DNA of 64,000 nt from a virus. Shown one piece after another: positions 1 to 12,920 of this stretch (position 1 is its first letter; each line of letters starts with the position of its first letter). The position numbers were made by a program, and so were the translations under genes. The notes below the pieces were generated by a model. It did no database searches. It saw only the letters and a list, made by a program, of their open reading frames with translations, and was not told where the DNA came from. The stretch spans positions 64,001 through 128,000 of the IMG/VR virus record IMGVR_UViG_3300044971_002537; one strand, 5' to 3'.

Positions 1-363
1 AGAATCCGTAGGATTATAGTGGGTATAGGTCCAACCCCTAGTGTGAGCTGAAGCCCGCCCTAGTGCGGCAGTCTTTTCCGCATCAATTTTGCCGTTTTCA
101 TCTTGAGGAAAGTCCCCGGCTTGATTGTGCCGCCACAATTGCCCCTTCGGGAATCTTTCGACTCGTTTGCAAAACGAGTCCCAATTGTCCCCGCGACCAC
201 CTTCCCCGATTTTCCGCCAGTGCATCCCTAGGGGACCGAAGCGGGCGTAACAATCCGTATCATTAAGAGGACACTCGATAGGGCACGATTTTTTCTCAGT
301 AGTGGAAACAGGGATTTTGCCAACTTTTATATTGTCAGATTGCATATTAAGAGAAACCCACAT
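1..363 (-). CDS. Phage gp88-like Cys-motif protein (3'-truncated by window edge)
   Basis: Not in the ORF track; manual translation MWVSLNMQSDNIKVGKIPVSTTEKKSCPIECPLNDTDCYARF...WRHNQAGDF...GWTYTHY; GGAG RBS and upstream promoter; CPxxCPx5CYA and RHNxxGD motifs. Confidence 0.65.
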   Translation of the reverse strand, partial: MWVSLNMQSDNIKVGKIPVSTTEKKSCPIECPLNDTDCYARFGPLGMHWRKIGEGGRGDNWDSFCKRVERFPKGQLWRHNQAGDFPQDENGKIDAEKTAALGRASAHTRGWTYTHYNPTDS

Positions 364-401
364 AACTCGCTCCAAATAGGGGTGATTGACTTGACTGGTG
401 C

Positions 402-429
402 ATTGTAACACACTATCAATAATTGTCAA
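402..429 (-). promoter_or_regulatory. sigma70-like early promoter
   Basis: TTGACA-16-TACAAT with extended -10 TG. Confidence 0.75.
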
Positions 430-470
430 GCGAAAAACTCACGATTTGAGTCGCTTGGAAGTTACTGAAG

Positions 471-524
471 TGACACCCGCCACAAGTGGCCGGGTGTAAC
501 AGGAAGGAAGGCGTCTTTCAGCCC
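471..524 (-). repeat. Bipartite hairpin element, copy 1
   Basis: + strand TG-ACAC-CCG-CCACAAGTGGC-CGG-GTGT-AAC-9 nt purine-GGCGTCTTTCAGCCC. Confidence 0.9.
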
Positions 525-530
525 ACCAAT

Positions 531-560
531 AAAAAAAGCCCAGCATATAGCCGGGCTTTT
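531..560 (-). terminator. Rho-independent terminator
   Basis: minus strand AAAAGCCCGGC-TATAT-GCTGGGCTTTTTTT. Confidence 0.8.
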
Positions 561-567
561 CAAATCT

Positions 568-652
568 CATATACTCTCCAGCCTTTCGGCCTTGTAGGCG
601 TAGTAACATACGTTGACGCCTCGTTATTCGGTGTTGCCACCTACAGTATATG
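568..652 (-). ncRNA. Putative structured RNA domain (four-way junction)
   Basis: CATATACT/AGTATATG closing stem with hairpins GGTG-GCAA-CACC, AGGCGT...ACGCCT, GGCC-GAAA-GGCT (two GNRA loops). Confidence 0.6.
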
Positions 653-653
653 C

Positions 654-786
654 TGAGCATTCACGGTTTCGAACCGCGTTTTCAAGATTGATTTGCTGAC
701 AGGTAATTACTCTGTTGCCTTCTGCACGTATCGATCCGTGCTTCCGAGTTCTCTCTTGTGTTTTAGCCAGATTAAACTAAATGCCC
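654..786 (-). ncRNA. tRNA-like RNA with 66-nt region in place of the anticodon loop
   Basis: Acceptor GGGCATT/AATGCTC, D stem GTTT/AAAC, anticodon stem CAAGA/TCTTG, T arm CGCGG-TTCGAAA-CCGTG; loop spans 688-753. Confidence 0.8.
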
Positions 787-818
787 GTGGTGTTTCGGTG
801 TGGTTTATGAAATAAGCC

Positions 819-921
819 ACACAGGGTATTTAAGCTTTTCAAGCTTGTGTTAGGTACTTCGCACGTTGGGACGTTTGAAGATTAGCCGATAGGCCCCTAG
901 GCTATTTAATGCCCCCTGTGT
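819..921 (-). ncRNA. Putative multibranched structured RNA domain
   Basis: ACACAGGG/CCCTGTGT closing stem with nested stems TAGG/CCTA, GGCC/GGCT, ACGT/ACGT, AAGCTT/AAGCTT, GGC/GCC; no ORF. Confidence 0.5.
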
Positions 922-943
922 GTCACCCGACTGACGCCGGGAA

Positions 944-1147
944 TTATAGTGGTCGAAGTGGAACCGGATCAATGACCAAATCGTCAATTGATATCTTCAT
1001 CATTTCCAAATTTGACTCGAAACAATCATCATCTTCCAACATGATGGAATATATGTCGTCGAAGACAAATTGCTGAAGTTGTTCGAGTGTCATTGACTCG
1101 ACCACCAAGTTTGCTAGTGATTCTACTTGTTCTGGTGTTGGTTTCAT
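944..1147 (-). CDS. Small acidic hypothetical protein (probably leaderless)
   Basis: 67-aa ORF; ATG 6 nt after the -10 box. Confidence 0.75.
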   Translation of the reverse strand: MKPTPEQVESLANLVVESMTLEQLQQFVFDDIYSIMLEDDDCFESNLEMMKISIDDLVIDPVPLRPL

Positions 1148-1153
1148 GGGGTT

Positions 1154-1181
1154 ATTATACCATCAGTAAAAGGAAAGTCAA
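1154..1181 (-). promoter_or_regulatory. sigma70-like early promoter
   Basis: TTGACT-16-TATAAT, TGG before -10. Confidence 0.75.
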
Positions 1182-1342
1182 TCTAGAAACTCAACCTTTG
1201 TGGCAATTGCCATCAGATCATGCTCGCCATTCCCGAGATTGAATTCTTTCCCGATGTAGTAAGCGAGTATGCGATCATCAGTACCATTGATGTTGGTGAA
1301 CAGATGATCGCCGTTAGAGAAGTAGACTTTGATTGATCTCAT
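1178..1342 (-). CDS. Small hypothetical protein (54 aa)
   Basis: Manual translation MRSIKVYFSNGDHLFTNINGTDDRILAYYIGKEFNLGNGEHDLMAIATKVEFLD. Confidence 0.7.
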   Translation of the reverse strand: MRSIKVYFSNGDHLFTNINGTDDRILAYYIGKEFNLGNGEHDLMAIATKVEFLD

Positions 1343-1365
1343 GGTGGTCTCAGTTGGGTGTTATG

Positions 1366-1420
1366 TGCTAGCCGCCACAAGTGGACGGCTAGAACAGAAA
1401 GAAAGGGGCCTTTCAGCCCC
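1366..1420 (-). repeat. Bipartite hairpin element, copy 2
   Basis: TG-CTAG-CCG-CCACAAGTGGA-CGG-CTAG-AAC-AGAAAGAAA-GGGGCCTTTCAGCCCC. Confidence 0.9.
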
Positions 1421-1686
1421 TTCGGATCAGACTTCTTCCAGAGAATACTCCGAACAATAGGCTGGCTTCTTAAAGATCTCTGGAGGGACTTCGAAACCCT
1501 CATTCCCCTGCTTTTCTTCGTTTTCTCAGGACGAATACTGAGTGCGGGTTGTTAGCCTTACATTACAGAGATGACAGACCTAATCAATTGAGGATTGATC
1601 TGATCAGTATTGATGTTTTCTTCAGATTTCAGCGTATTCATATATGGGACTCACTACATATGCCCATTTTGAATACGAGGTTTTTC

Positions 1687-2328
1687 ATGATCACTTGTTT
1701 GACTTGTTTAGTAGAAAAAGATGATGACGATTTCTACCTCAGAAATAAGGCTACCGGCAACAGGTTCCGTAGGTGTAAATCTTGTAATGCAAAAGTCGCT
1801 AGAAAAAGATATGGAGCCGACGAGCTAGCCTATCAAGCTGGTAAGGTAGTCAGGCTTGAGAAAATAGCCAAATTGTCTGATGGGAAGAAGTGTTGTGTCT
1901 CATGCTCGGTCGAGAAAGAACTTTCAGACTTTTACTTTCGTAGTAAGGCTAAAGGAATTTTACAATCGAGATGTAAAGAGTGCCAGAACAATAGCAAGTA
2001 TGAGTACTACTTAGATAACAAAGACAAAATAAAGCAGAGAAAGAAGGATAGAAAGGCTATCGCGACTGAATTTGTCCGGAATATAAAGCTAGCTTCTGGC
2101 TGTTTTTTATGCGAAGAGAATGAGCCGATAGCTTTAGATTTTCATCATTTGGATCCACAAGAAAAGGGCGATAGGATCTCTAATATGACAAAAGAGAGGA
2201 GGACTCTTGAAGACATAGAGGCTGAGATTAAAAAATGTATCCTCTTATGCTCTAATTGTCATAGGAAAGTCCACGCTGGAATAATCAAATTGAAGCATGA
2301 GGGATTCGAACCCTCTTCCAAGGGTTGA
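1687..2328 (+). CDS. HNH endonuclease with N-terminal CxxC zinc-ribbon repeats (homing type)
   Basis: CFLC...LDFHHLDP...CILLCSNCHRKVH; GAGG RBS before ATG 1687; AT-rich and opposite to the local strand. Confidence 0.85.
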   Translation: MITCLTCLVEKDDDDFYLRNKATGNRFRRCKSCNAKVARKRYGADELAYQAGKVVRLEKIAKLSDGKKCCVSCSVEKELSDFYFRSKAKGILQSRCKECQNNSKYEYYLDNKDKIKQRKKDRKAIATEFVRNIKLASGCFLCEENEPIALDFHHLDPQEKGDRISNMTKERRTLEDIEAEIKKCILLCSNCHRKVHAGIIKLKHEGFEPSSKG

Positions 2329-2362
2329 AAACCCTCGTGTCCTTCCAGTAGACGAATGCTCC
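2291..2362 (-). tRNA. tRNA-Glu(UUC)
   Basis: Cloverleaf GGAGCAT/ATGCTTC, anticodon loop TT-TTC-AA, T arm GAGGG-TTCGAAT-CCCTC; no encoded CCA. Confidence 0.9.
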
Positions 2363-2363
2363 G

Positions 2364-2432
2364 AATCCCGCACTCCTAGTGAGTGAACACTTGTGTGCTT
2401 ATTTACACCACCTGATAAATCAGGGCGGGATT
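2364..2432 (-). ncRNA. Structured leader or small RNA ahead of tRNA-Glu
   Basis: AATCCCGC/GCGGGATT closing stem with three internal hairpins. Confidence 0.45.
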
Positions 2433-2435
2433 TGA

Positions 2436-2463
2436 ATTATAGCAGCAAATATGCTGCTGTCAA
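2436..2463 (-). promoter_or_regulatory. sigma70-like promoter with palindromic spacer
   Basis: TTGACA-gcagcatatttgctgc-TATAAT. Confidence 0.85.
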
Positions 2464-2464
2464 G

Positions 2465-2537
2465 TGGGCAGTCATGGAATCGAACCATGTGTGCGGCCTT
2501 ATAAGGACCGTCCTCAAAACCGTCGAGGACACTGCCC
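2465..2537 (-). tRNA. tRNA-Ile(UAU)
   Basis: GGGCAGT/ACTGCCC, D stem CCTC/GAGG, CGGTC-CT TAT AA-GGCCG, CATGG-TTCGATT-CCATG. Confidence 0.85.
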
Positions 2538-2550
2538 AAGCTCTACGAGC

Positions 2551-2844
2551 TTATTTTGCCACCAATTCCTTGACTTCGTAGACTTCCCCGCCGATCTGGG
2601 CCTGAATGATGCCCTCAAAAGCGAGACTACGATAGTTCTTCACGACCAAATCATACACAGTGATAACCTTAGCAGACTCTGGAGCGGCCTTGCCAGTGCC
2701 TACGAGGTGTTTTTTCACGTTCGTCTGGCAGTTCAAACGACGGACGTGATTATCACCACGGGCCGCACGGTAGAGAATGCTCATGATCTGGCCATTCGTG
2801 GATCTAACTTTCTGGATCATCTGGTCGCGTGTAACGTATTTCAT
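2551..2844 (-). CDS. WYL_2/SH3-like beta-barrel protein
   Basis: SILYRAARG..VRRLN and VITVYDLVVKNYRSL motifs. Confidence 0.6.
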   Translation of the reverse strand: MKYVTRDQMIQKVRSTNGQIMSILYRAARGDNHVRRLNCQTNVKKHLVGTGKAAPESAKVITVYDLVVKNYRSLAFEGIIQAQIGGEVYEVKELVAK

Positions 2845-2891
2845 AACTAAAGTCCTTTTGGGGGTTAAAAAACTGGTGAACTTGTTAGCCC

Positions 2892-2919
2892 ATTATACTT
2901 CAACAGTACTGGAATGCAA
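2892..2919 (-). promoter_or_regulatory. sigma70-like promoter
   Basis: TTGCAT-16-TATAAT. Confidence 0.6.
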
Positions 2920-3096
2920 GGTGGTTGTGATAAATTGTTTGTCTTCTGGATCGTTTTTCATCACATCAAACGCCCCATCAATCAGGGCTTTCGATAGCAT
3001 CACTGCCATTTCTGGTGAGATATACATAGTGTCCTTGCCACCGTCAATAGCAATCATGTTTCTGAACCGTCGAACTGTTAGTTGTTTGCTGTCCAC
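2893..3096 (-). CDS. Hypothetical protein
   Basis: 67-aa ORF with GTG start and GAGG RBS. Confidence 0.65.
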   Translation of the reverse strand: MDSKQLTVRRFRNMIAIDGGKDTMYISPEMAVMLSKALIDGAFDVMKNDPEDKQFITTTLHSSTVEV

Positions 3097-3319
3097 GTTC
3101 GTATTCCTCGTTAAGTTTTAGCATTTTTGGGTAAGCATCGAAATACGTCAATCCCGATTCAATGAATTTGTAGCGTTTGTATCCGGGATGTTCCGGATTT
3201 GGTTCGAACTGATGTTTATCCATAATGGAACAATTACCCCGAGACATCTCGCTGCGTGGATCTCCATCGAAAGATGGTGGCTTTTGTTTTGCTTGATAGA
3301 TTGCATATCGTTTTGTCAT
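3044..3319 (-). CDS. Hypothetical protein (start reassigned to MTKRY; probably leaderless)
   Basis: ATG 5 nt after TAGAAT; the longer ORF would run through the repeat element. Confidence 0.6.
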   Translation of the reverse strand: MTKRYAIYQAKQKPPSFDGDPRSEMSRGNCSIMDKHQFEPNPEHPGYKRYKFIESGLTYFDAYPKMLKLNEEYERGQQTTNSSTVQKHDCY

Positions 3320-3324
3320 AGCTA

Positions 3325-3352
3325 ATTCTACCATACTAGAGACATAAGTCAA
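3325..3352 (-). promoter_or_regulatory. sigma70-like promoter
   Basis: TTGACT-16-TAGAAT. Confidence 0.7.
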
Positions 3353-3396
3353 GTGGAAAAGTGCCGATTTGGTTAGCGGCTCAGGGTGTCGTCTAC

Positions 3397-3467
3397 TGCG
3401 TCCCGCCACAAGTGGCCGGGACGAGCGGGAAGAAAGGGGAGGGGCAGGGCCTTTCGACCCCACCCCT
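3397..3467 (-). repeat. Bipartite hairpin element, copy 3
   Basis: TG-CGTC-CCG-CCACAAGTGGC-CGG-GACG-AGC, longer purine spacer, GGGCCTTTCGACCC hairpin. Confidence 0.85.
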
Positions 3468-3522
3468 CAGGGCGGCTAGGGGACACCCCTGAACCCTAGC
3501 CACCATATTCGAGGCTTTAGCC

Positions 3523-4800
3523 TCACATCAGTTGGTTGACAATCGCAGCAACCAGATCATGTCCAAACTTGGCAAACTCTGAAGTGTAGTCATCTGCCCC
3601 ACGAGTGTAGTGGTGAGCAAGTTCATGCACCATAGTTCTGCTCAGGTCTTTGTTCTTTTCCCAGAGCATAACTTCACTTTTACCGGAATTGTGCAATCCG
3701 AGGAACCCCGGATGGTGTCCATCCTTAGTATTGTACATGATCAGCTTTGGCCGAGGCAACCCATCCGAAAGACCAACGGTCTCGATCAATTCACAGATAT
3801 CGTTGTAGTGCTTAAGGACAGCTTCGCTCGGAGGAGAGATAAGGAATCCCCTGATCTCTGCTTCACAAACCCCATCAATCCCATTCAATTCTGGGATTTC
3901 GGCAATGATAGACTTGTGCCAGCGTGGATCAATCGCAGTTGCATTCGCGATGGTGAAGTTGGTAGGACATAATCCCACCTTACCAATAAGCTCTCGCCAA
4001 ACCTCAAGGAATTCTTCGCTGAATCCAGAATAGGTCTTCTCAGTTTCAACGAGTTGCATTTGGATAAGAACTGCGTCTCTGATCTTCGCGAGTCGCTCTT
4101 TCGCTTTCTCGTAATAGGTCGTATGGTACTGGATACTGTTGACCAGAGAATCCGAACTGCCAGTACGACACTCGTTGATCGTAAAGTCCATGTTGTAGTC
4201 AAACAGGGAATCATCCGTCAATTCCCGAATGAAAACTCCCTTTCGATAGATTCGACACCTTGAGACTGTGGCCTTATCAATGACCTTTTCGCCTTTCTTG
4301 TCAACGAAGTGCAGGAAGTACTTTCCAATGTTGTCGAAGTATTCCTTCGCCAGATCGGTGTATGGAACAAAAACCGCAACTTCATCGTCAGACGCCTCAA
4401 TCTTGTTCGTGAGAACCAGAAGTTCGCCCGGAATAGCGCCAGCATCCAGAGCGTTTGAGATCCATTCTCGCAATCCAAGGCAGGCAGTCGGCCAGTCTAG
4501 TGTCCCATACTCCAACGCGACGTTGAGCGGGGACTTTTTGCGACTGTGACACATGAGAACCTGCTGGAATGGAATCCCATCGCCCTTCAGGATATCTTTG
4601 GTCTCGAACGTGACTTTCTTCCCATTGATCATGAACACTGGCGATGTGCCATAGGCACGCATCCATGCCAGTGTTCCGAGGAGCGTTCCGCTCCCAAACT
4701 GGCCGATCTTGTCGTCCTTGCCACGAGAAGTGCTAACACCCAGCGTGAACATATCTTCCGGTGTGGTCACGGACTTGCTAACAATCTTAACGTACTTCAT
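3523..4800 (-). CDS. GHKL (HATPase-like) protein with permuted motif order and C-terminal HExxH metallopeptidase-like domain
   Basis: IGQFGSG, LREWISNALDA, MVHELAHHY motifs. Confidence 0.7.
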   Translation of the reverse strand: MKYVKIVSKSVTTPEDMFTLGVSTSRGKDDKIGQFGSGTLLGTLAWMRAYGTSPVFMINGKKVTFETKDILKGDGIPFQQVLMCHSRKKSPLNVALEYGTLDWPTACLGLREWISNALDAGAIPGELLVLTNKIEASDDEVAVFVPYTDLAKEYFDNIGKYFLHFVDKKGEKVIDKATVSRCRIYRKGVFIRELTDDSLFDYNMDFTINECRTGSSDSLVNSIQYHTTYYEKAKERLAKIRDAVLIQMQLVETEKTYSGFSEEFLEVWRELIGKVGLCPTNFTIANATAIDPRWHKSIIAEIPELNGIDGVCEAEIRGFLISPPSEAVLKHYNDICELIETVGLSDGLPRPKLIMYNTKDGHHPGFLGLHNSGKSEVMLWEKNKDLSRTMVHELAHHYTRGADDYTSEFAKFGHDLVAAIVNQLM

Positions 4801-4838
4801 GACTGTCTCTCAACTAGGGGTTTTAAACTGACACACGA

Positions 4839-4866
4839 ATTATACCACACATTAATGTGATGTCAA
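4839..4866 (-). promoter_or_regulatory. sigma70-like promoter with palindromic spacer
   Basis: TTGACA-tcacattaatgtgtgg-TATAAT. Confidence 0.85.
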
Positions 4867-4903
4867 GCACATTTCTTCAGTTGGCTCAGGTGTTTGGCTT
4901 GAT

Positions 4904-4957
4904 TGCCCACCGCCACGCCTGCCGGTGGGAACAGGAAGGAGGGGGCCTTTCGGCCCC
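4904..4957 (-). repeat. Bipartite hairpin element, copy 4
   Basis: TG-CCCA-CCG-CCACGCCTGC-CGG-TGGG-AAC-AGGAAGGAG-GGGGCCTTTCGGCCCC. Confidence 0.9.
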
Positions 4958-4985
4958 ACTCCTTCGGGTCTCTCACCACTCACCC

Positions 4986-5861
4986 CTAGGCGGCAATCGC
5001 CAGTGCCTCAGCACGGTCGACCGCGACGTCCTCAAGGGCCATCAAAGTCTGGTCCATACGGGACATTCGATCGCCACCCTTACCCGCACGCTGAACGTGC
5101 TGAACATACCCCTGCACTGAATTGTAGGCCATCCAGCGAGAAACCATGAAGTCCCCGCCGAAAGTTCGGCCCGTCCGATAGCATTCGGACATTACACGCT
5201 TAACAATCGCCTCGGTACGATTCTTGTGAATCGTGACCGATCGCGGAGTCGCGTCACTCGCGAGCGGGTAGACCGCATCGAGGAAACTCACAAGCGAGAC
5301 TTGTCTCGCTTCCATTTCCGCGACGGTCTCAGTGACCGACTTCCAGCCCTCTTTCAGGCCAGAGAACACGTCGATCAACTCATTCAGGCGAGGACGCAGG
5401 GACTGAGTGTGACGAATCGACACGCTGGTTCCAGACACTTGCTTCAGGCGAGCAAGGTTCAGGCAGGCATCTCGGAACATCCCGAGAGACGCACGGAACG
5501 GACGGTCATCATACCCCGCTGAGACGATCATGCGAGGGAAGATATTGTCAGCGGTCCCGTAAACCGCCTTGCGGTGCTCGCGGGTAGGCTCAACAACCAC
5601 GTAGTGGCCGTTTCGCCAGTGACATTGGACGTTGACACCGTCGTCAAACGCGGCCTGAGCAGCCTCAACCAAAACGACCACGTCGTCGGTGGTGTGCGGC
5701 GAATATTTCGCCGTGACCGCGTTCAGGCAGGAATTGTCGTCGGACTTGAAAAGCCCGAAGTACGGGGTTGTAAACCCGTCAGGACCGGACAAACGCAGTT
5801 TGTCAACAGTAAAGTTAAAAGTGGATCGAACAACGTCAGCAGCAGAAATCAAAGTCGTCAT
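4986..5861 (-). CDS. DUF932/DUF945-family phage/plasmid protein
   Basis: GLFKSDDNSCLNAVTAKYSPH, FRDACLN, SIRHT and WMAYNSV motifs; GGAG RBS before ATG 5861. Confidence 0.75.
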   Translation of the reverse strand: MTTLISAADVVRSTFNFTVDKLRLSGPDGFTTPYFGLFKSDDNSCLNAVTAKYSPHTTDDVVVLVEAAQAAFDDGVNVQCHWRNGHYVVVEPTREHRKAVYGTADNIFPRMIVSAGYDDRPFRASLGMFRDACLNLARLKQVSGTSVSIRHTQSLRPRLNELIDVFSGLKEGWKSVTETVAEMEARQVSLVSFLDAVYPLASDATPRSVTIHKNRTEAIVKRVMSECYRTGRTFGGDFMVSRWMAYNSVQGYVQHVQRAGKGGDRMSRMDQTLMALEDVAVDRAEALAIAA

Positions 5862-5911
5862 ACCAATTCTCCAGAACAGGGGTTTAAGATGGCGATTAGC
5901 CAGACAGGTAC

Positions 5912-5939
5912 ATTGTACCAGACAACGTTCCGTTGTCAA
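5912..5939 (-). promoter_or_regulatory. sigma70-like promoter with palindrome
   Basis: TTGACA-acggaacgttgtctgg-TACAAT; GACAACG-GAA-CGTTGTC. Confidence 0.8.
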
Positions 5940-5982
5940 GCACAAAACAGAACTTTCCGAGGAGGACCAGAGCAACACTAAG

Positions 5983-6036
5983 TGTCACCCGCCACGCCTG
6001 CCGGGTGAAACAGCAAGGAAGGGGCCTTTCAGCCCC
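5983..6036 (-). repeat. Bipartite hairpin element, copy 5
   Basis: TG-TCAC-CCG-CCACGCCTGC-CGG-GTGA-AAC-AGCAAGGAA-GGGGCCTTTCAGCCCC. Confidence 0.9.
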
Positions 6037-6063
6037 TCCCCCTAGTGGATAACCGAACTCAGC

Positions 6064-6432
6064 CTAATCCTCGAATTCCAGCCCGATTAGGTTGGCGAAA
6101 GTGATCTGATTACGATACAGTCGTTCCTCATCCTCATGAAACTTGATTTCTCGTTGTGCGTCAGTGTCCGCACAATATGCTTCCAACCGAAGTTCCTTTT
6201 CAATCTCGCGATCCTCAGCTTCCTGCTTTTTGATCTCAGCGGCAGTTTTCTCGGGATGGAGAATCTGCTTGGCCGTTCGGCCAGTGCGACCATGCAAGCG
6301 GGCCGGTAAAAGAGAATTGGGGATTTCGATAGCTTCGCTCCAAGCGTCATAGAGACCTTTCAGCAGATCTCGGGCCGGAGTCTTCAGGGAATCAATTTGC
6401 TCAATCAAAGTCATAGTCATAGTCTGGCTCAT
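6064..6432 (-). CDS. Hypothetical protein
   Basis: 122-aa ORF downstream of promoter 6495-6522. Confidence 0.7.
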   Translation of the reverse strand: MSQTMTMTLIEQIDSLKTPARDLLKGLYDAWSEAIEIPNSLLPARLHGRTGRTAKQILHPEKTAAEIKKQEAEDREIEKELRLEAYCADTDAQREIKFHEDEERLYRNQITFANLIGLEFED

Positions 6433-6494
6433 CAGGGGTTTCCGATTCTAAGTCAAGGATTGCGAGAATAATTTCATCACGACTTGTGATGCGT

Positions 6495-6522
6495 ATTCTA
6501 GGGAATTCACCATGCTTTGCAA
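6495..6522 (-). promoter_or_regulatory. sigma70-like promoter
   Basis: TTGCAA-16-TAGAAT. Confidence 0.55.
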
Positions 6523-6570
6523 GATACTTCCGGCAATAATATTGCCAGAGTTCTTTAATTGTTGCCTCTC

Positions 6571-6720
6571 TCATTTGGTCGTCACATAGTGAGAGGCAAT
6601 ACTGATCAGCTTTGCGGTTTCCTTGGCATTGTCAAGATCACCTTCCTTGATCTGATCTTCCAAGTACAAGGCCAATGAGCGAATCAGAATGATGTACTGT
6701 TGCTGAGTGAATGTGTTCAT
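6571..6720 (-). CDS. Small hypothetical protein (49 aa)
   Basis: MNTFTQQQYIILIRSLALYLEDQIKEGDLDNAKETAKLISIASHYVTTK; GAGGG RBS. Confidence 0.65.
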   Translation of the reverse strand: MNTFTQQQYIILIRSLALYLEDQIKEGDLDNAKETAKLISIASHYVTTK

Positions 6721-6751
6721 AGTCCCTCGTGTGTTGAATGTGTCGCTTAAG

Positions 6752-6805
6752 TGCTCACCGCCACGCCTGCCGGTGAGAACAGGAAGACAGGGGCCTTTCA
6801 GCCCC
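6752..6805 (-). repeat. Bipartite hairpin element, copy 6
   Basis: TG-CTCA-CCG-CCACGCCTGC-CGG-TGAG-AAC-AGGAAGACA-GGGGCCTTTCAGCCCC. Confidence 0.9.
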
Positions 6806-6822
6806 GTGTTTCAGCTTCTCTT

Positions 6823-7032
6823 TTACTGCTCGATTCTCACGTTTTTATTATTCGCGAAATCGAACATATAGTTAACTGAGTCTGTTGACTCGGCTGCTCT
6901 TGAGTCGGTAGGCACATACCACCGAGACATCAGTTCCTTACCTGACGCTTCTGCTTCTGCCTGTGTAGCAAATCGCAGGGCATTAGATGACCACTCACCA
7001 GCACACTTCATTTCAGGTTTCCACGACATCAT
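6823..7032 (-). CDS. Small phage hypothetical protein
   Basis: 69-aa ORF, AGGAG RBS, promoter directly upstream. Confidence 0.75.
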   Translation of the reverse strand: MMSWKPEMKCAGEWSSNALRFATQAEAEASGKELMSRWYVPTDSRAAESTDSVNYMFDFANNKNVRIEQ

Positions 7033-7049
7033 GATTCTCCTTATGAGGA

Positions 7050-7078
7050 ATTATACCAGAGGGATTCTAGCCTGTCAA
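7050..7078 (-). promoter_or_regulatory. sigma70-like promoter
   Basis: TTGACA-17-TATAAT, TGG before -10. Confidence 0.85.
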
Positions 7079-7359
7079 TCCTGCCACGCTTTTAAGGCTT
7101 TGATTTGTTTGATGATGGCACTCATCTGATCGCAAGCAATTGCTTTTTGTGATTTGCTGAGACCAACTCCGATTTGGGTATATCTCCGCCAGATCGGAAC
7201 TTTTGGGACGCACGCCCGATCAACATCCGACATTGATGTCTGAAGCTGTGTGTATAGTTCATCAGGGATAAGACCCTTAAGGGCGTGGATCATTTCCCAT
7301 AGAGTATTTCTTTCGGACTGGGCTACTGTCGAATCTGATTTGTATACTGTGGCCGTCAT
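7075..7359 (-). CDS. Hypothetical protein
   Basis: ORF from MTATVY, AAGGGA RBS. Confidence 0.65.
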   Translation of the reverse strand: MTATVYKSDSTVAQSERNTLWEMIHALKGLIPDELYTQLQTSMSDVDRACVPKVPIWRRYTQIGVGLSKSQKAIACDQMSAIIKQIKALKAWQD

Positions 7360-7382
7360 GTCTATCCCTTTGTTGTATTGTT

Positions 7383-7435
7383 TGCTACCCGCCACGCCTG
7401 CCGGGTAGAACGGAAAGAAAGGGGCCTGTCACCCC
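7383..7435 (-). repeat. Bipartite hairpin element, copy 7
   Basis: TG-CTAC-CCG-CCACGCCTGC-CGG-GTAG-AAC-GGAAAGAAA-GGGGCCTGTCACCCC. Confidence 0.9.
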
Positions 7436-7451
7436 ACCCCCTATTCCTCTT

Positions 7452-7655
7452 TTACCGGCCCCACGTCCTGTTGCTTGCCACACTACCCTCTAGGGCACCC
7501 TCGGCGATTACAGCTAGGGCGGTCTCTCTACCCCCCACTACGTTCCTCGCAAGCCTACGAGCCTCTAAAGCATTCTCCGCGTCGATGTAAAACGCTGGGA
7601 GGAAAACCTGTTCCCCGTCTCGTTCCGTTGTTGCCATAATCTCAAAACGTCTCAT
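7452..7655 (-). CDS. Small protein, IxAxxxxxA family
   Basis: MRRFEI...IDAENALEARRLA; overlaps stop of the upstream gene. Confidence 0.7.
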   Translation of the reverse strand: MRRFEIMATTERDGEQVFLPAFYIDAENALEARRLARNVVGGRETALAVIAEGALEGSVASNRTWGR

Positions 7656-8197
7656 GATTGTCCTCTTTTTACTGCGACTAAATCAACTCCGATGATTTTT
7701 GCTACTGCAATACACATATCAAATTGACAGGTCGGTTTTCCGGTTTCGAATTCAGAGATAAATCTGAGTCCTACGCCACACATATCTGCTAGTTCACTTT
7801 GTTTAATTCCTGCCTTTTTTCTCCAAGATCTACAATATCTCCCTAGATCGGCAAGATTATCAATATTTGCTTTGTCTGATATACCTAGGGATTCTAGTAT
7901 ACCAATTGATTCAAATTTCTCTAAGCAGATTTGGAATTGCTCTATTACTAATCTTGGAGGACAGGAAAACCAATCCCTCGAACTCCTAATAGAGAATTTC
8001 TTCAGGACATCTCTGACTTGACTTTCTGCTTCAAAGTGGTCTTTAGTTTGTGTCGACCACTCTAATGTTGACCTTCCCGGCAGCACCGAGGACAGATTAG
8101 AAAATCTAGTTTCGACGTCTGTAGTGGCCCCCAGTTTAGTTAGACCGGGGGACCACTCGTTTGTTAGAACATACACATATCCGATTTCGTTCGCCAT
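7652..8197 (-). CDS. T5orf172/GIY-YIG-like domain fused to HipB/y4mF-like XRE HTH
   Basis: GYVYVLTN...GLTKLGATT; RKKAGIKQSELADMCGVGLRFISEFETGKPT. Confidence 0.8.
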   Translation of the reverse strand: MANEIGYVYVLTNEWSPGLTKLGATTDVETRFSNLSSVLPGRSTLEWSTQTKDHFEAESQVRDVLKKFSIRSSRDWFSCPPRLVIEQFQICLEKFESIGILESLGISDKANIDNLADLGRYCRSWRKKAGIKQSELADMCGVGLRFISEFETGKPTCQFDMCIAVAKIIGVDLVAVKRGQS

Positions 8198-8207
8198 AAT
8201 CTCTTTT

Positions 8208-8531
8208 CTATGTAGGAAGTGGCTCGTGGTCCATCACAACCCCGTCAGGGATTTTCACGAAAATCCGATTTCCACAGATCCGAGCCTTGACCTTCCCGTG
8301 CATTGTAGGGAACTCGACAGCATTGTCAAGGCTCTTGAAGATTTCGCTGGAAACTTCCTGATTTCCAGTCATCCGAATCCCGAGGATCGAGTCTCCAGAT
8401 GAGAATGTGCTCCCTGACACCCAGATCCCCCGCAGGTTGCCCTGTTCGTCGCGTGTCCAGAACGTGAGTGAGCAGTGACGCTGGCCTGAAGTGCTCTTGG
8501 TCTTGACCATGGTCTTGATTGAAGTTCTCAT
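8208..8531 (-). CDS. Hypothetical protein
   Basis: ORF on the operon strand ending just before the next RBS. Confidence 0.55.
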   Translation of the reverse strand: MRTSIKTMVKTKSTSGQRHCSLTFWTRDEQGNLRGIWVSGSTFSSGDSILGIRMTGNQEVSSEIFKSLDNAVEFPTMHGKVKARICGNRIFVKIPDGVVMDHEPLPT

Positions 8532-8594
8532 AATTGACAATCCAATAGGGGTGAAGCGGGCTGACCATCCCTTGATGGCCTGTGTTGTTTGTTT

Positions 8595-8647
8595 TGCTAC
8601 CCGCCACGCCTGCCGGGTAGAACCGCAAGGTAGAGGCCTGTCACCCC
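8595..8647 (-). repeat. Bipartite hairpin element, copy 8
   Basis: TG-CTAC-CCG-CCACGCCTGC-CGG-GTAG-AAC-CGCAAGGTA-GAGGCCTGTCACCCC. Confidence 0.9.
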
Positions 8648-8675
8648 ACCCTTAGTACTGGCCGCTCGTGTCCAA

Positions 8676-8837
8676 TTAAGCTAGTGGCCAGACTTTGACC
8701 ATAATGATTGTCTCGAAGACGTATGTGGACACTTTGTCTACAACAGTGTTGATTGCATCGGTGAAGCCCAATGCTCTGACTTCCTGTTGGATTTTCCAAG
8801 CAGAAGCAAAAGTGATTTCAACACAGTATGATTGCAT
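8676..8837 (-). CDS. Small protein (53 aa), VxAxxxxxA family
   Basis: MQSYCVEITFASAWKIQQEVRALGFTDAINTVVDKVSTYVFETIIMVKVWPLA; AGGA RBS. Confidence 0.65.
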   Translation of the reverse strand: MQSYCVEITFASAWKIQQEVRALGFTDAINTVVDKVSTYVFETIIMVKVWPLA

Positions 8838-8876
8838 GATTTTAATTCCTGTAAGGTTTAGGGGCCGTTAGGCCCC

Positions 8877-8904
8877 ATTGTAATAAATCCGCATTTCCCG
8901 TCAA
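8877..8904 (-). promoter_or_regulatory. sigma70-like promoter
   Basis: TTGACG-16-TACAAT. Confidence 0.65.
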
Positions 8905-8907
8905 GCC

Positions 8908-9120
8908 CTAGCCCCGAGAAATTGTTTCTTTATCAGAAATCCAATTGAGGATATGTAGAGGTTTCTCAGTAACGGTAAGATCACCTATTCCCACTACTGA
9001 GAGAAGCGAGCCATTCCCATCAGCCTTGACGCTTGTGATACTGGTCGTGCGTACATGGATCTCAGACTTGGTTGGTGACAGTGACTTGATCGTGAGGGTA
9101 ATGAACATGCTTCGCTCCAT
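8908..9120 (-). CDS. Small hypothetical protein
   Basis: 70-aa ORF, beta-rich. Confidence 0.65.
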   Translation of the reverse strand: MERSMFITLTIKSLSPTKSEIHVRTTSITSVKADGNGSLLSVVGIGDLTVTEKPLHILNWISDKETISRG

Positions 9121-9169
9121 TGTTTATGTATATGGCCGGTTTTGCCGGAGGTCGTCCGACTGTGTCAGA

Positions 9170-9199
9170 AGTATACCACAGTGTGTATGATCAGTGCAA
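9170..9199 (-). promoter_or_regulatory. Possible sigma70-like promoter
   Basis: TTGCAC-18-TATACT, TGTGG before -10. Confidence 0.5.
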
Positions 9200-9311
9200 G
9201 CCAAATGGCAACAATTGGCCCAATTGAGTAATAAAAAACAACACAGGCCCAGTCGGTCTTCGACATTTTGAGTTCCTCCTCTTGTATTATCGACTACCCC
9301 GGCTCCGGACT

Positions 9312-9479
9312 TTACTCTTTTCGCTCAGTACAGGCGATTGAAACGGCTTCAGACAGATTTACCGTTTCTGAGAGTTTCGCGTGGGCGTTTCTCACGGCTA
9401 GCATTGCAGTGATCGCATCAACCTGAATCTCGTGGGTGAAGCCATTAGAGAAAATGAAAGAAACAAGGAATTTTCTCAT
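9312..9479 (-). CDS. Small protein (55 aa), VxAxxxxxA family
   Basis: MRKFLVSFIFSNGFTHEIQVDAITAMLAVRNAHAKLSETVNLSEAVSIACTERKE. Confidence 0.65.
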   Translation of the reverse strand: MRKFLVSFIFSNGFTHEIQVDAITAMLAVRNAHAKLSETVNLSEAVSIACTERKE

Positions 9480-9510
9480 GATCAGGTATCCGTCTGAGAG
9501 TTGTATGATG

Positions 9511-9565
9511 TGTCACCCGCCACGCCTGCCGGGTGAAACGGGAAGAAGGGGGCCTTTCAGCCCCC
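9511..9565 (-). repeat. Bipartite hairpin element, copy 9
   Basis: TG-TCAC-CCG-CCACGCCTGC-CGG-GTGA-AAC-GGGAAGAAG-GGGGCCTTTCAGCCCC. Confidence 0.9.
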
Positions 9566-9591
9566 TCCCTAGCGGAACCAATCAGGCCACC

Positions 9592-9912
9592 CTACGAGAG
9601 GGAATCCTGAATGGCATAGAGCCGCTCGATGGGTGCCCACTCGGCCTCCAGCATCGCCTCATATCGGGCGGATTCATACAGGTCATCTAGGCGTGCCGCC
9701 TCACACTCCCACAGGGCCTTCTCAGCGTCCCACTGACGCTCTAGCTCGTCGTAGGCCTCGTATACCGGCATGGCCCATGGGTGAGTGCTATCGCACTCTA
9801 TGACGGTGTCCCCGTCCTTGAGTCGCCATTCTGGTGCGTCCCCGTGGAAGTAGGGGTTTCCGATGAAGCCGTATCCAGTAGCGTAGCCAGCCATGCCGGG
9901 GGTAACGATCAT
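9592..9912 (-). CDS. Acidic hypothetical protein
   Basis: ORF from MIVTPG, AGGA RBS. Confidence 0.7.
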   Translation of the reverse strand: MIVTPGMAGYATGYGFIGNPYFHGDAPEWRLKDGDTVIECDSTHPWAMPVYEAYDELERQWDAEKALWECEAARLDDLYESARYEAMLEAEWAPIERLYAIQDSLS

Positions 9913-9952
9913 AGTACAAGTCCTGTTGAGGAAGTGAGGAGTTGGCGTCAAC

Positions 9953-10006
9953 TGCCAGCCGCCACACCGGGTCGGCTGGAGCGGGGAGGGAGGGGTCAGT
10001 CACCCC
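9953..10006 (-). repeat. Bipartite hairpin element, copy 10 (divergent)
   Basis: TG-CCAG-CCG-CCACACCGGGT-CGG-CTGG-AGC-GGGGAGGGA-GGGGTCAGTCACCCC. Confidence 0.8.
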
Positions 10007-10232
10007 ACCCTAGGGTGGCTTACTGCTGAGCCTTACGTGCGTTGTCCTGATCTGCCTTAAGGGCGGCCATGGGCTGGACATTAGGGGGTAGCGGCACTGG
10101 TACGTAGGTGGGGCGAGGTGCCTTACCAGTAAGCATACCACGCTGAATAGCCTTGAGGGAATAGAACTTGATGTACTGCATGGGGTGTGTCCTGAGTAGA
10201 GTGAGGGATAATGACATAGCCACCCTAGGGTG
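10006..10232. repeat. 15-bp inverted repeats flanking a small ORF
   Basis: CACCCTAGGGTGGCT (10006-10020) and AGCCACCCTAGGGTG (10218-10232). Confidence 0.7.
10020..10181 (-). CDS. Small hypothetical protein (53 aa)
   Basis: ORF from MQYIKF, AGGA RBS. Confidence 0.6.
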   Translation of the reverse strand: MQYIKFYSLKAIQRGMLTGKAPRPTYVPVPLPPNVQPMAALKADQDNARKAQQ

Positions 10233-10237
10233 ACCTA

Positions 10238-10426
10238 CTAGCCTACCCATTTGGGCATGCTCTTGACTACCTTACAGGTCACTTCGGCAATCTCCACGGG
10301 GGTAGTTTGTGCATCATGCAGGTAGGCGATTGCTTCAGCTACCGCTACGGTGGCATTGACCGCCTCAACTGTGCGAGTCAAGTAACCACCCTCAGTGCAT
10401 ACTAACTTAACTTCGTAGTACTTCAT
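10238..10426 (-). CDS. Small protein, VxAxxxxxA family
   Basis: MKYYEVKL...TVEAVNATVAVAEAIAYL; GGAG RBS. Confidence 0.75.
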   Translation of the reverse strand: MKYYEVKLVCTEGGYLTRTVEAVNATVAVAEAIAYLHDAQTTPVEIAEVTCKVVKSMPKWVG

Positions 10427-10483
10427 CAGAGAACTCCATTAGGGGTGGGGCTTTCGCCCCCTTAGGGAAAAGGTCAGATAGTC

Positions 10484-10753
10484 TTAGGCCTCAATACTAT
10501 CCCACCCTACTGGCGAGGCCTTAGCTGCCCGCATCTTCTCAGCGATAGCCACTAGTTGTTTGTCGGCCTCACTCCTTAGGTGCATTGGCATCTCCCACTT
10601 AGGGGGGGAGTAGTTGGTACTATGCCATGCACAGAATTCATCAGTAGTAGGGTTGCCGCCCCGGACAAGGGCAGACATCGTTACATCGAAGTCGAAGCCA
10701 GACTTTTCTTTGATTTCGCAGAATTCGATCATCAGGTCAGACAATTTGCCCAT
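10484..10753 (-). CDS. Hypothetical protein
   Basis: 89-aa ORF, GAGGAG RBS. Confidence 0.75.
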   Translation of the reverse strand: MGKLSDLMIEFCEIKEKSGFDFDVTMSALVRGGNPTTDEFCAWHSTNYSPPKWEMPMHLRSEADKQLVAIAEKMRAAKASPVGWDSIEA

Positions 10754-10786
10754 TTTAACTCTCCTCAGGGGGTGAATGATAGGGGG

Positions 10787-10815
10787 ATTTTAGAGGATTC
10801 CCCCGAACCTGTCAA
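10787..10815 (-). promoter_or_regulatory. sigma70-like promoter
   Basis: TTGACA-17-TAAAAT. Confidence 0.75.
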
Positions 10816-10817
10816 GC

Positions 10818-11003
10818 CTAGTAATTCCCCTTGTCCAACCATTCCTGATCGAGATATTCAGGAGCCGGATCATAGACGGCTGACGCGGTCTCAATCACGT
10901 CTGCGATCCAATTTTCCATTTTGGCATCTTCTTCGTTCAGAAGGGCCAACAATTCGTTGGTGTTGTTCAATTCAACGCTGGTGATTCGGTCGTCGTATCG
11001 CAT
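10818..11003 (-). CDS. Small acidic hypothetical protein
   Basis: ORF from MRYDDR. Confidence 0.65.
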   Translation of the reverse strand: MRYDDRITSVELNNTNELLALLNEEDAKMENWIADVIETASAVYDPAPEYLDQEWLDKGNY

Positions 11004-11053
11004 CGTGGTATCTTTCGTCAGGGGTGAAACACTTGTCAGACAGTATACTATCG

Positions 11054-11218
11054 TCATTTTGTTTTGATTGCAACAGTAGATGTTCCATAATTTTTTACTT
11101 TTCGAATCAAATAACTCATTTCTTTCGAGGTGAAAACTACGTCACCACGTTTGGCGACGTGATAGCAGGCTGATGTTCCCATGAGGCGTGAACTGAAAGT
11201 GAATCCGTTGATTTCCAT
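11054..11218 (-). CDS. Small hypothetical protein
   Basis: ORF from MEINGF, AAGGA RBS. Confidence 0.6.
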   Translation of the reverse strand: MEINGFTFSSRLMGTSACYHVAKRGDVVFTSKEMSYLIRKVKNYGTSTVAIKTK

Positions 11219-11255
11219 GACTGTTGTCCTTAGAGTGTTTTGAATTGACACGCGG

Positions 11256-11285
11256 ATCATACCATAGTTATCGGCCATGCGTCAA
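11256..11285 (-). promoter_or_regulatory. First promoter of the early block
   Basis: TTGACG-18-TATGAT, TGG before -10. Confidence 0.55.
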
Positions 11286-11439
11286 TACTCGCATCAATGA
11301 TTCGGCCAAAATAAAAAAACTTTTCTGGAATTGGTCGATGGCGTAGGGGGGTGGGGTTTTATCTCCTTAGGGGGAGGGGTCTGTACAGGTATGTTAAGAC
11401 GCCGGGGCCTGCTCAAAAGTAATGTCCCATCAAACCCAA

Positions 11440-12357
11440 TTAAACCCCACCCACGCAACGCCCCAGAAACCTCGACAGCGTAGCCGCATGGACATCGCAC
11501 GGTAAAGCCATAGCTATCTCTTTGAGAGTCTTCCCATCTTTCTTCATCTCTAATATCTTATCTTTGAACTCATCTAGTTTGCTCCCACGGTAGCTCATAT
11601 TAGATAATCTCTTCGAACTCAATTCACGACTTTCTCTACATGAGACACTCACCAAATGATCTGGATTACAGCACTTAAAGTTCTTGCAGTTCCTCTGTAC
11701 CATATAAGAGAAGTTTCCACAATGGTGCATATACGACACTCTATGTGGAATATACTTTTCTCCTCGCAATGAAACATTTGGTTTCTCATATTCCCAGCAG
11801 CCGGAATCCAGTATGACCAAATCGGGCTGCATTTTTTGCCAGATCTCTGAGTAGTCAACGCCTTTATCAGAGATGACTGTACGATTGTACAGGCACCATG
11901 AATCTAGACTTGACATGATTTCATTCTCTCTCCTCAGTAGATCTTTCTCATCACAGTCCTCGATATAGGCCATATAAAAACCATACTTGCCCCAGTCATT
12001 TTGCAGGTCTGTATTTTTGTGTAGTCCTCTATCAAGCTGCGATATATGTTTTTGGAATCTTGAGTATACATCAGCACTCGATCCTATGTAGACTTTTGTA
12101 CAGTCAGTTCTGACTATTGCATAAACTCCGCATTTGCCCTTGAAGAAATCTAGATCCTTCTTGCCAGATATAAATTTGCCAAAATGCTTAGTCTTCAGCT
12201 TATAGTGTTTCACTATCGACTTGAACTGAGTCTTAGAAATATTGTATTTCTTTATCAAGTCGTTATTAGTCATAGTGGAATACTCAGCCACTAAAGACCT
12301 AGTCTCTGCTGCCGTCAGCGGGTTATTGTTACTCAATTTGCCAATTGGTCTAGCCAT
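11440..12357 (-). CDS. Homing-type endonuclease with GIY-YIG and HNH-like domains
   Basis: CGVYAI...VYIGSS...SRFQKH; GCWEY...HRVSY...NCKNFKCCNPDHL; terminal HTH-like segments. Confidence 0.8.
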   Translation of the reverse strand: MARPIGKLSNNNPLTAAETRSLVAEYSTMTNNDLIKKYNISKTQFKSIVKHYKLKTKHFGKFISGKKDLDFFKGKCGVYAIVRTDCTKVYIGSSADVYSRFQKHISQLDRGLHKNTDLQNDWGKYGFYMAYIEDCDEKDLLRRENEIMSSLDSWCLYNRTVISDKGVDYSEIWQKMQPDLVILDSGCWEYEKPNVSLRGEKYIPHRVSYMHHCGNFSYMVQRNCKNFKCCNPDHLVSVSCRESRELSSKRLSNMSYRGSKLDEFKDKILEMKKDGKTLKEIAMALPCDVHAATLSRFLGRCVGGV

Positions 12358-12782
12358 TATTCTTCCTTTGCTAAGATCGCTACTTCGGCTGGATATCCAC
12401 GATAGATACGCTTATGAAGCGTATCGTAAGACACCCCACATCTTGGATCTCTAGCCCATTCTGCGAGAGTGAGTTCTTCGCCAAAGGCTAGAACTCTCAC
12501 ATTATCGACACGATTATTTGCGTTTTCGATGGGTGACATCCTACGTAAGTTGCTTACGCGGTTGTCGAGCCGATCCCTATTAATATGGTCAATGACGATC
12601 CTAGGATCATCCTCGTTCATAACAACTCGGTGCATGCGGACTGTACAGCCGTCCACTACGGCCACCGCATATGTGTTCCTCAAAAACCACTTGTATCGGT
12701 TGAGCCGCACATAATCTTCAGGATCAACCTCAGCATACTTGCCAGCACCAGCAACACCAGACAACCAAAGTTTCATGGCCAC
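12357..12782 (-). CDS. HNH endonuclease (HNH_3 type)
   Basis: MHRVVM...VIDHINRDRLDNRVSNLR. Confidence 0.85.
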   Translation of the reverse strand: MAMKLWLSGVAGAGKYAEVDPEDYVRLNRYKWFLRNTYAVAVVDGCTVRMHRVVMNEDDPRIVIDHINRDRLDNRVSNLRRMSPIENANNRVDNVRVLAFGEELTLAEWARDPRCGVSYDTLHKRIYRGYPAEVAILAKEE

Positions 12783-12874
12783 GCCTTATAAGAACCACAT
12801 AATAGAAGAGTACGGGCACACCGCCCGTACTCTTATACGTTATTTCCACTAATGACAGCCATATTTAGATAAAA

Positions 12875-12886
12875 GCGTATATAATA
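12875..12886 (+). promoter_or_regulatory. Putative phage late promoter (GCGTATWWA motif)
   Basis: GCGTATATAATA at the start of the plus-strand block; motif recurs before other late genes. Confidence 0.55.
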
Positions 12887-12920
12887 GGGAGACTTCTCTT
12901 TTTACTGATGACTTGAGGTC

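Follow-up and report, generated by a model that had tools for sequence, protein, structure and literature searches.

A PeSL-like two-hairpin module as a probable boundary of early-gene cassettes in a large freshwater phage

PeSLs, the promoter-early stem-loop motifs of T4-type phages, are small composite terminator/promoter motifs located in highly variable regions, where they give rise to chimeric recombinants through crossovers in or near the stem-loop without a dedicated recombinase (PMC2839356, PMC4122927). A repeated intergenic element with two hairpins is described here in a 64,000-nucleotide stretch of phage DNA (the window), which covers positions 64001-128000 of the 139,854-bp IMG/VR virus record IMGVR_UViG_3300044971_002537; the completeness of this record is estimated at 72%, and negative searches of the record apply to that portion of the genome. 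The repeats are probably PeSL-like, portable terminator (attenuator)/leader boundary modules that also act as recombination homology in a variable early-gene region, a reading to which a probability of about 60% is given. Among the analogies offered in a first-pass annotation of this DNA, the T4-type promoter/stem-loop proved the closest.

A pattern scan with CCGCCAC-N6-8-CGG finds 10 occurrences in the window, all on the + strand, against an expectation of 0.08 from shuffled sequence, and none elsewhere in the record. These are the ten copies of the first-pass annotation, which had rightly described them as intergenic and of one orientation; relative to the genes, this is the sense orientation. 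A covariance model built from 21 copies recovers 10 of 10 window copies (E1 to E10; Table 1) and adds two diverged copies left of the window (record positions 63515-63591 and 61857-61934), and no copy lies outside a 12-kb stretch of the record. Four copies contain the 16-mer GGGGCCTTTCAGCCCC exactly, and four more match it with one to three mismatches. An Rfam covariance scan of window positions 1-14000 (E<=1), a check that the annotation had proposed, returned tRNAs only and no known motif for the element. Megablast of the element region against known phages gave no match, and the exact core with its flanks has only four chance matches in 185,579 bacterial and archaeal genomes, all inside coding sequence and without complementary arms.

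All local genes lie on the minus strand, and the element therefore reads differently from its earlier description, in which the covarying hairpin came first. On the coding strand, the stop codon of the upstream gene is followed by a GC-rich hairpin (hairpin 1), a 12-nucleotide (nt) C/U tract, the covarying hairpin (hairpin 2), the dinucleotide CA and the continuation. Hairpin 1 has a GC stem with a GNRA-type loop (e.g., GGGGCU-GAAA-GGCCCC) and is often longer, as a run of purines ahead of it pairs with the first bases of the tract behind it. The tract ends in C-Y-G-(T/C)-T, in which C11, G13 and T15 are present in 62, 64 and 65 of 65 distinct copies, respectively, and the spacing from hairpin 1 to hairpin 2 is near-constant at 12 nt. 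What had been taken for a longer spacer in the third copy is a longer hairpin 1 (13 bp), and the distance between its hairpins is 12 nt, as in the others. Hairpin 2 consists of a 7-bp lower stem (N4 plus YCG) and an apical part of 10-11 nt, with an upper stem of 2-4 bp and a loop of 3-4 nt; between the stems lies one unpaired purine, either bulged or opposite G (an R-G mismatch). G(T/C)T, with C-Y-G just ahead, precedes hairpin 2 in 61 of 63 copies, CA follows it in 46 of 63, and an A lies within 2 nt past the stem in 60 of 63.

The statement that all 40 N4 positions are Watson-Crick paired, across eight N4 sequences, is correct, and selection on the structure of the stem is borne out by covariation both among window copies and in relatives. 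Pairing of hairpin 2 reaches 99.5% in 62 distinct copies drawn from six genomes; six of nine pairs are changed on both sides, giving 124 compensatory cells with zero one-sided changes and zero G-U pairs. The lower stem occurs in 27 versions, every one of them perfectly Watson-Crick, and the upper stem itself covaries (CCA/UGG, CAC/GUG, CGC/GCG). Orthologous copies of hairpin 2 are separated by at least six compensatory double changes. The stem changes from CCAG to CCAC at E10 (CCAC/GTGG in relative R, described below), from TGTT to CGTT at copy 0, from CCG/CGG to TCG/CGA at E3 and E9, and from CTAC to CTCA or CTGC at E7, and GTGG to GCGG in relatives is accompanied by CAC to CGC. The invariance that had been noted for TG, CCGCCAC and A(A/G)C holds within the window but not in relatives, where all of these vary and the CA flank becomes TA, AT or AC.

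Hairpin 1 shows a different pattern. It is 79-84% paired, and of about 486 paired cells on the minus strand, approximately 94 are G-U or U-G, mostly in outer pairs. Each of these would become a C-A mismatch on the + strand, and hairpin 1 is therefore an RNA-sense structure. Its sequence type is that of solitary terminators elsewhere in the genome (GGGGCCGAAAGGCCCC then a T-run), and a simple terminator scan recognizes three of the ten first hairpins. One half of the element is a plain intrinsic-terminator hairpin of a type used elsewhere in this genome, contrary to the earlier view that the repeat does not behave as a plain terminator would. Hairpin 2 can form on either strand; as single-stranded DNA (ssDNA), it is calculated at -9 to -12 kcal/mol on the minus strand, and its commoner variant (loop GCAGGCGTGG) is 3-4 kcal/mol weaker on the + strand.

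Two arrangements follow the elements. Downstream of E1, E3, E4 and E5 lies a strong sigma-70 promoter (TTGACA-N16/17-TGnTAnAAT) at a distance of 37-44 nt, and downstream promoters are also present at element copies of relatives. The strength of these promoters indicates that the host polymerase transcribes the region. E2 and E6 to E10 have no promoter; an AC-rich leader and a GGAGA-like ribosome site precede the start codon, which lies 24-62 nt from the element. E1 has a weak hairpin 1, which is preceded by a strong canonical terminator at 561-533. This terminator, just upstream of the element, looks bidirectional; an unannotated structured stretch (654-786) adjoins it, and a further promoter is located at 972-943.

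Table 1. Coordinates of the element copies and of other features (window positions unless the record is named)
Feature	Position	Strand	Remarks
Element E1	465..542	-	Covariance-model match of 64 bits, and fold; hairpin 2 stem ACACCCG/CGGGTGT
Element E2	1360..1437	-	Stem CTAGCCG/CGGCTAG; next start codon 1342, 24 nt downstream, no promoter between
Element E3	3391..3478	-	13-bp hairpin 1 (flagged terminator-like); stem CGTCCCG/CGGGACG
Element E4	4898..4974	-	Covariance model and fold; stem CCCACCG/CGGTGGG
Element E5 (exemplar)	5977..6053	-	Covariance model and fold
E5, hairpin 2	TG 5983-5984; N4 5985-5988; CCG 5989-5991; apical part 5992-6001; CGG 6002-6004; N4' 6005-6008	+
E5, remainder	AAC 6009-6011; purine tract 6012-6020; first-hairpin core 6021-6036	+
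Element E6	6746..6822	-	Stem CTCACCG/CGGTGAG; next start codon 6720, no promoter between
Element E7	7377..7453	-	Stem CTACCCG/CGGGTAG; next start codon 7359
Element E8	8589..8665	-	Stem CTACCCG/CGGGTAG; next start codon ~60 nt downstream
Element E9	9505..9581	-	Stem TCACCCG/CGGGTGA; next start codon 9479
Element E10	9947..10024	-	Most diverged window copy; stem CCAGCCG/CGGCTGG; next start codon 9912
Sigma-70-type promoter	402..429	-	41 nt downstream of E1; 11/12 positions, with TG
Sigma-70-type promoter	3325..3352	-	44 nt downstream of E3
Sigma-70-type promoter	4839..4866	-	37 nt downstream of E4; 12/12 positions
Sigma-70-type promoter	5912..5939	-	43 nt downstream of E5
HNH endonuclease gene, free-standing	1549-2328	+	Adjoins tRNA-Glu
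425-aa protein gene	3523-4800	-
T5orf172 + HTH homing-endonuclease-type gene	7652-8197	-
GIY-YIG endonuclease gene, free-standing	11440-12357	-
HNH endonuclease gene, free-standing	12357-12782	-
Sigma-70 region-2-like open reading frame	13057-13506	+	First gene of rightward structural operon
Sigma-70 region-2-like open reading frame	Record 136241-136444	-
Toprim_2 (primase-type) domain	Record 139379-139573, outside window	-	Cut off by record end

Relatives were found in two ways. Tighter sequence patterns in viral contigs identified relative R (a looser pattern gave at least 119 single chance matches), a 29.7-kb viral contig (loci L130 and L131) that is collinear with the window, 80-95% identical, and carries 13 element copies. 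A related-locus search with the 425-amino-acid (aa) protein encoded in this region found none; homologues of this protein, and then the contigs encoding them, gave six further loci, with protein identities from 81% down to 34%. The same element family is present in L142 (81%), L146 (75%) and L144 (44%), with 10-17 copies each. L141 (49%) has the same layout with another hairpin 2, in which GCT is followed by perfect stems of 9-11 bp and variable loops, and L140 (56%) has four copies of GGCGGCTCGCCCTYCGGGCGGGGCTC, each after a terminator and before a promoter. In L145 (34%), CCGCGACAGGC, a covarying hairpin of 30-45 nt and GCCC recur in 13 sense-strand copies between early genes (4809-15845); this element is a separate family with the same placement. 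The succession of a terminator and a perfect hairpin peculiar to each lineage is thus conserved across the phage group, down to 34% protein identity.

The elements had been said to divide the region into gene cassettes, and the comparison of genomes agrees, since relatives differ by insertion, deletion, replacement and reordering at these sites. Between the window and R, the block containing E1 and its promoter (374-545) is 95% identical and has no homology on either side. Homology stops at the outer end of hairpin 1 at three positions (1419/1420, 6038 and 6805) and 12-17 nt past hairpin 2 at two more (3380 and 8583). After E6, R has a further cassette of 1 kb next to a chimeric element (rX) whose left part (hairpin 2 and tract) comes from E7 and whose right flank comes from E6, with the switch inside hairpin 1. 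In a gene-family map of all loci, the extra cassettes F30, F40, F41, F21 and F31 arrive with an element, F11 is replaced by F24 between two elements, and the locations of F40, F41, F37, F21 and F7 differ from genome to genome; the DUF932 gene and the 425-aa protein gene stand in opposite order in different lineages. The identities of hairpin 2 stems are retained at orthologous positions, and hairpin 2 is therefore not the usual crossover point. Lake variants carry 482 extra bases adjoining E8. Contigs assembled from lake reads break at the elements, as expected for any repeat, and a single E6-to-E7 contig joint (depth 2, side 28, four odd letters) with non-complementary arms was set aside as too weak to count as a sign of mini-circles, the products expected when neighboring PeSL motifs exchange.

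These observations are consistent with the following mechanism. The phage, a large tailed lake phage, would rely on host RNA polymerase, and hairpin 1 with the C/U tract on the minus strand would form an intrinsic terminator acting as a leaky attenuator. Hairpin 1 must be leaky because six of the 10 downstream genes are without their own promoter, and leakiness would let the modules, as attenuators, grade or delay the expression of successive genes of the operon. Hairpin 2 would head the next expression unit, followed either by a sigma-70 promoter ~40 nt on or by an AC-rich leader with a Shine-Dalgarno sequence ahead of the start codon. Since a module of 60-75 nt is repeated at high identity, it offers homology for ordinary, rather than site-specific, recombination, which may have inserted, deleted, replaced and reordered cassettes in relatives. 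Termination and attenuation at hairpin 1, and recombination as the cause of the cassette differences, are what we infer from the arrangement of the sequences.

Several points weigh against the interpretation as PeSL-like boundary modules. Termination, read-through and transcript ends are predicted from sequence alone, the C/U tracts are imperfect U-tracts, and the promoter half that defines a PeSL is present in only four of 10 copies. Many indels of the region are not bounded by an element (e.g., genes 7652-8197 and 10484-10753), and the exchange of whole genes would by itself place some of the breakpoints at intergenic elements. The near-invariant CCG...GG-CGG core around the R-G mismatch suggests a specific trans-acting factor, and none was found. 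Finally, the absence of wobble pairs, together with conservation that is independent of a promoter, is better accommodated by a helix acting at the DNA level or measured by a protein.

The roles considered for hairpin 2 are candidates of unequal probability. The leading candidate, at a little under even odds, is a cis-acting RNA structure on read-through transcripts, serving CYGU/U processing and end protection, leader insulation or antiterminator loading. A hairpin that is read by a factor at the DNA level is a less probable candidate, and the remaining probability falls to roles other than these two. A role in RNA is favored by the sense orientation, by the conserved single-stranded box and by the leaders, whereas the lack of wobble pairs, the equal conservation of hairpin 2 when a promoter follows, and its close linkage to the terminator rather than to the following gene argue against a simple one. 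These last three observations, together with the near-invariant core around the R-G mismatch, favor a helix that acts in DNA or is measured by a protein, but the record yielded no reader for it.

The specific proposal that survives best, which nevertheless is doubtful, is that read-through RNA is cut at the linker CYGU/U and that hairpins 1 and 2 protect both resulting ends. CYGU/U resembles an RNase E site (G at -2, U at +1), the nearly invariant G13 and T15 lie in a 12-nt single-stranded linker between two stable hairpins, and unstructured AC-rich leaders follow an element that is always in sense orientation. However, hairpin 2 is equally perfect when a promoter lies downstream, where it would be left out of the main transcript of the gene that follows, and an element that only conferred stability would be expected to tolerate wobble pairs, of which there are none. 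In the T7 early region, RNase III sites are likewise intercistronic structured elements, and an element of that kind could leave protective hairpins on both products, but the stems here (7+3 bp) are far too short for RNase III itself and form two separate hairpins joined by a single-stranded linker.

An improbable variant of the RNA role is a loading site like lambda nut (boxA + boxB) or HK022 put, at which hairpin 2 and CYGUU would recruit a phage or host factor to polymerases that leak past the attenuator, and factor-bound polymerases would pass later terminators, delaying the six promoterless cassettes. The resemblance to nut and put lies in a conserved single-stranded box directly 5' of a small hairpin with a conserved core (here including the R-G mismatch) and a free lower stem, and in placement within early operons that contain terminators; the absence of a promoter for six of 10 downstream genes fits as well, as does the presence of an own hairpin family in each lineage, like the N/boxB pairs of lambdoid phages. 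Yet twelve copies are present, each after a terminator, where a processive antiterminator would need one site per operon; stems and loops of the L141 lineage are variable, with no conserved hairpin sequence; and wobble pairs are again lacking. The loop of hairpin 2 is not a GNRA pentaloop, and the GNRA-type loop belongs to the terminator hairpin. No arginine-rich N-like peptide was found among the early open reading frames (ORFs) and no NusG or RfaH paralog in the record.

At the DNA level, it is equally improbable that hairpin 2 is recognized, as ssDNA, by a phage enzyme dedicated to it. Such an enzyme could be a recombinase or a nuclease, moving cassettes, or a primase or a polymerase, initiating synthesis at the hairpin. 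If this were true, a lake phage group would have combined a hairpin system like that of integrons or of N4 with ordinary terminators. The integron-like form, in which hairpin 2 folds in ssDNA and a phage recombinase cuts and joins it to move cassettes, corresponds to the dedicated system for recombinational shuffling proposed in the first-pass annotation, and it fares poorly. The strictly Watson-Crick lower stem in 27 versions, the stability of the hairpin as ssDNA and the attC-like arrangement, in which structure-selected hairpins bound cassettes facing one way and GTT adjoins the stem, speak for it. Against this, GTT is outside the stem and unpaired with the 3' flank, there are no paired R''/R' (RYYYAAC/GTTRRRY) cores, and the lower stem is perfect, all of which differ from attC, an imperfect inverted repeat with extrahelical bases; in addition, several cassettes have their own promoters, and the element includes a terminator. 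The mappable crossover in the chimeric copy is in hairpin 1, homology blocks hold the whole element with breakpoints outside it, and the retention of stems at orthologous positions means that hairpin 2 is seldom swapped. Neither a tyrosine integrase (PF00589), and thus no IntI, nor a Y1 HUH enzyme (PF01797) was matched in the 140-kb record, which is not decisive at 72% completeness. REP/BIME elements with RAYT also differ, given the lack of a PF01797 match and the fact that the element core is not a repeat in bacterial genomes.

A hairpin promoter is very improbable. N4-type hairpin promoters have a 5-7-bp stem and a 3-nt loop and serve the virion RNA polymerase. Hairpin 2 would correspond to such a promoter, or to a motif (promoter or terminator) used by a polymerase fused to the tape measure protein, as in P23-45, with transcription starting at the CA past the stem. 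It is a perfect, DNA-type hairpin on the appropriate strand ahead of early genes, the A close past the stem is nearly constant, six genes have no other recognizable promoter, and the record is incomplete. Yet the apical part (10-11 nt) is much larger than the N4 loop, and the strong sigma-70 promoters are of host type. The record contains no match to T7-like RNA polymerase (PF00940) or the Rpb2 family, and no ORF of >=150 aa, not even that of the 2090-aa tape measure protein, has a DFDGD-like, DxDGD-type or DxDxD polymerase motif; the large tail proteins have no solved relatives, with no match among PDB sequences or in the ESM Atlas. The pre-early units of P23-45 (PMC10770324) are similar in being repeated early units with a conserved terminator motif.

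The least probable proposal is a G4-type ssDNA priming signal, in which two hairpins flank a primase triplet on the lagging-strand template (CTG, or GTT/GCT, triplets that we take to match the T4 and E. coli primase recognition sites): the near-constant G(T/C)T with C-Y-G before it, the fixed inter-hairpin spacing, the Watson-Crick-only hairpin 2 and a Toprim primase fragment at the record end are compatible with it, but the motif match is post hoc, and a lagging-strand signal would not account for copies that occur only within 12 kb of early genes and always with a terminator. A search of the record for a DnaG zinc ribbon gave none.

Four other identities were rejected. The stems differ between copies, unlike those of a CRISPR-repeat mimic; an ECF-sigma promoter on the + strand would be on the wrong strand; the RfaH ops-like sequence GGCGGTAG matches only where N4 happens to be GTAG; and a self-cleaving ribozyme has no Rfam match.

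The record belongs to a tailed phage that encodes a large terminase and the tape measure protein. Cultured phages are distant (the closest terminase match is 23% identical), and sequence of this phage is present in >20 lake-water DNA runs, with no RNA run among the public runs listed for it. From 1 to 12.8 kb of the window, the genes are all on the minus strand except one HNH gene noted below, and a rightward structural operon starts at ~13 kb. Its first gene, one of two sigma-70 region-2-like ORFs in the record, occupies the same place in relatives. The left region contains small genes without assigned function, two tRNAs, a DUF932 protein and the 425-aa protein. The latter has no Pfam match but is kept in all seven related lineages, with invariant GQFGSG, RExxxNAxDA and C-terminal HExxHH motifs, of which RExxxNAxDA is like the N box of GHKL ATPases and HExxHH is zincin-like; the DUF932 protein always neighbors it, in an order that differs between lineages. 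Four genes are of the homing-endonuclease type (two HNH, one GIY-YIG and one T5orf172). Besides the T5orf172 gene, three free-standing ones follow each other within the same 13 kb in the order HNH, GIY-YIG, HNH, and the first HNH gene is on the strand opposite to the others, its segment being missing from R. The T5orf172 gene is absent from R and from lake variants, which have 109 bases in its place, a clean presence/absence polymorphism. Gene 10484-10753 (with 10441-10460 and 10444-10816 as the positions noted for its surroundings) sits between a plain terminator hairpin and a promoter and is missing in lake variants from two runs, a cassette loss without the two-hairpin element.

Boundary modules that join transcription punctuation to gene shuffling are known mainly from T4-like phages, and the modules described here would extend them to an unrelated and uncultivated group of large freshwater phages. 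The element marks exchange sites of accessory genes, which probably act in host takeover or anti-defense, and its covariance model can be used to find such regions in metagenomes. For hairpin 2, with 27 stems, no wobble pairs and a fixed 12-nt offset, no known family matches, which points to a structure-specific reader of RNA or DNA.

The likeness to PeSLs (Arbiol et al. 2010, PMC2839356; Comeau et al. 2014, PMC4122927) extends over several features. Both are composite intergenic terminator stem-loops; here, the GC stem, GNRA-type loop and C/U tract after stop codons predict the terminator role by sequence alone. The promoter is shared in part, as four of 10 copies have a near-consensus sigma-70 promoter downstream, itself preceded by A/T-rich sequence. 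The copies cluster in a highly variable region of small genes without assigned function, close relatives show motif-bounded differences, including a chimeric motif with its crossover in the stem-loop, and a dedicated recombinase was not found in the record. Three features set the element apart from PeSLs. Six of 10 copies are without a promoter, the phage is large, tailed and unrelated to T4, and a second, strictly Watson-Crick covarying hairpin, which has no PeSL counterpart, stands 12 nt past the terminator.

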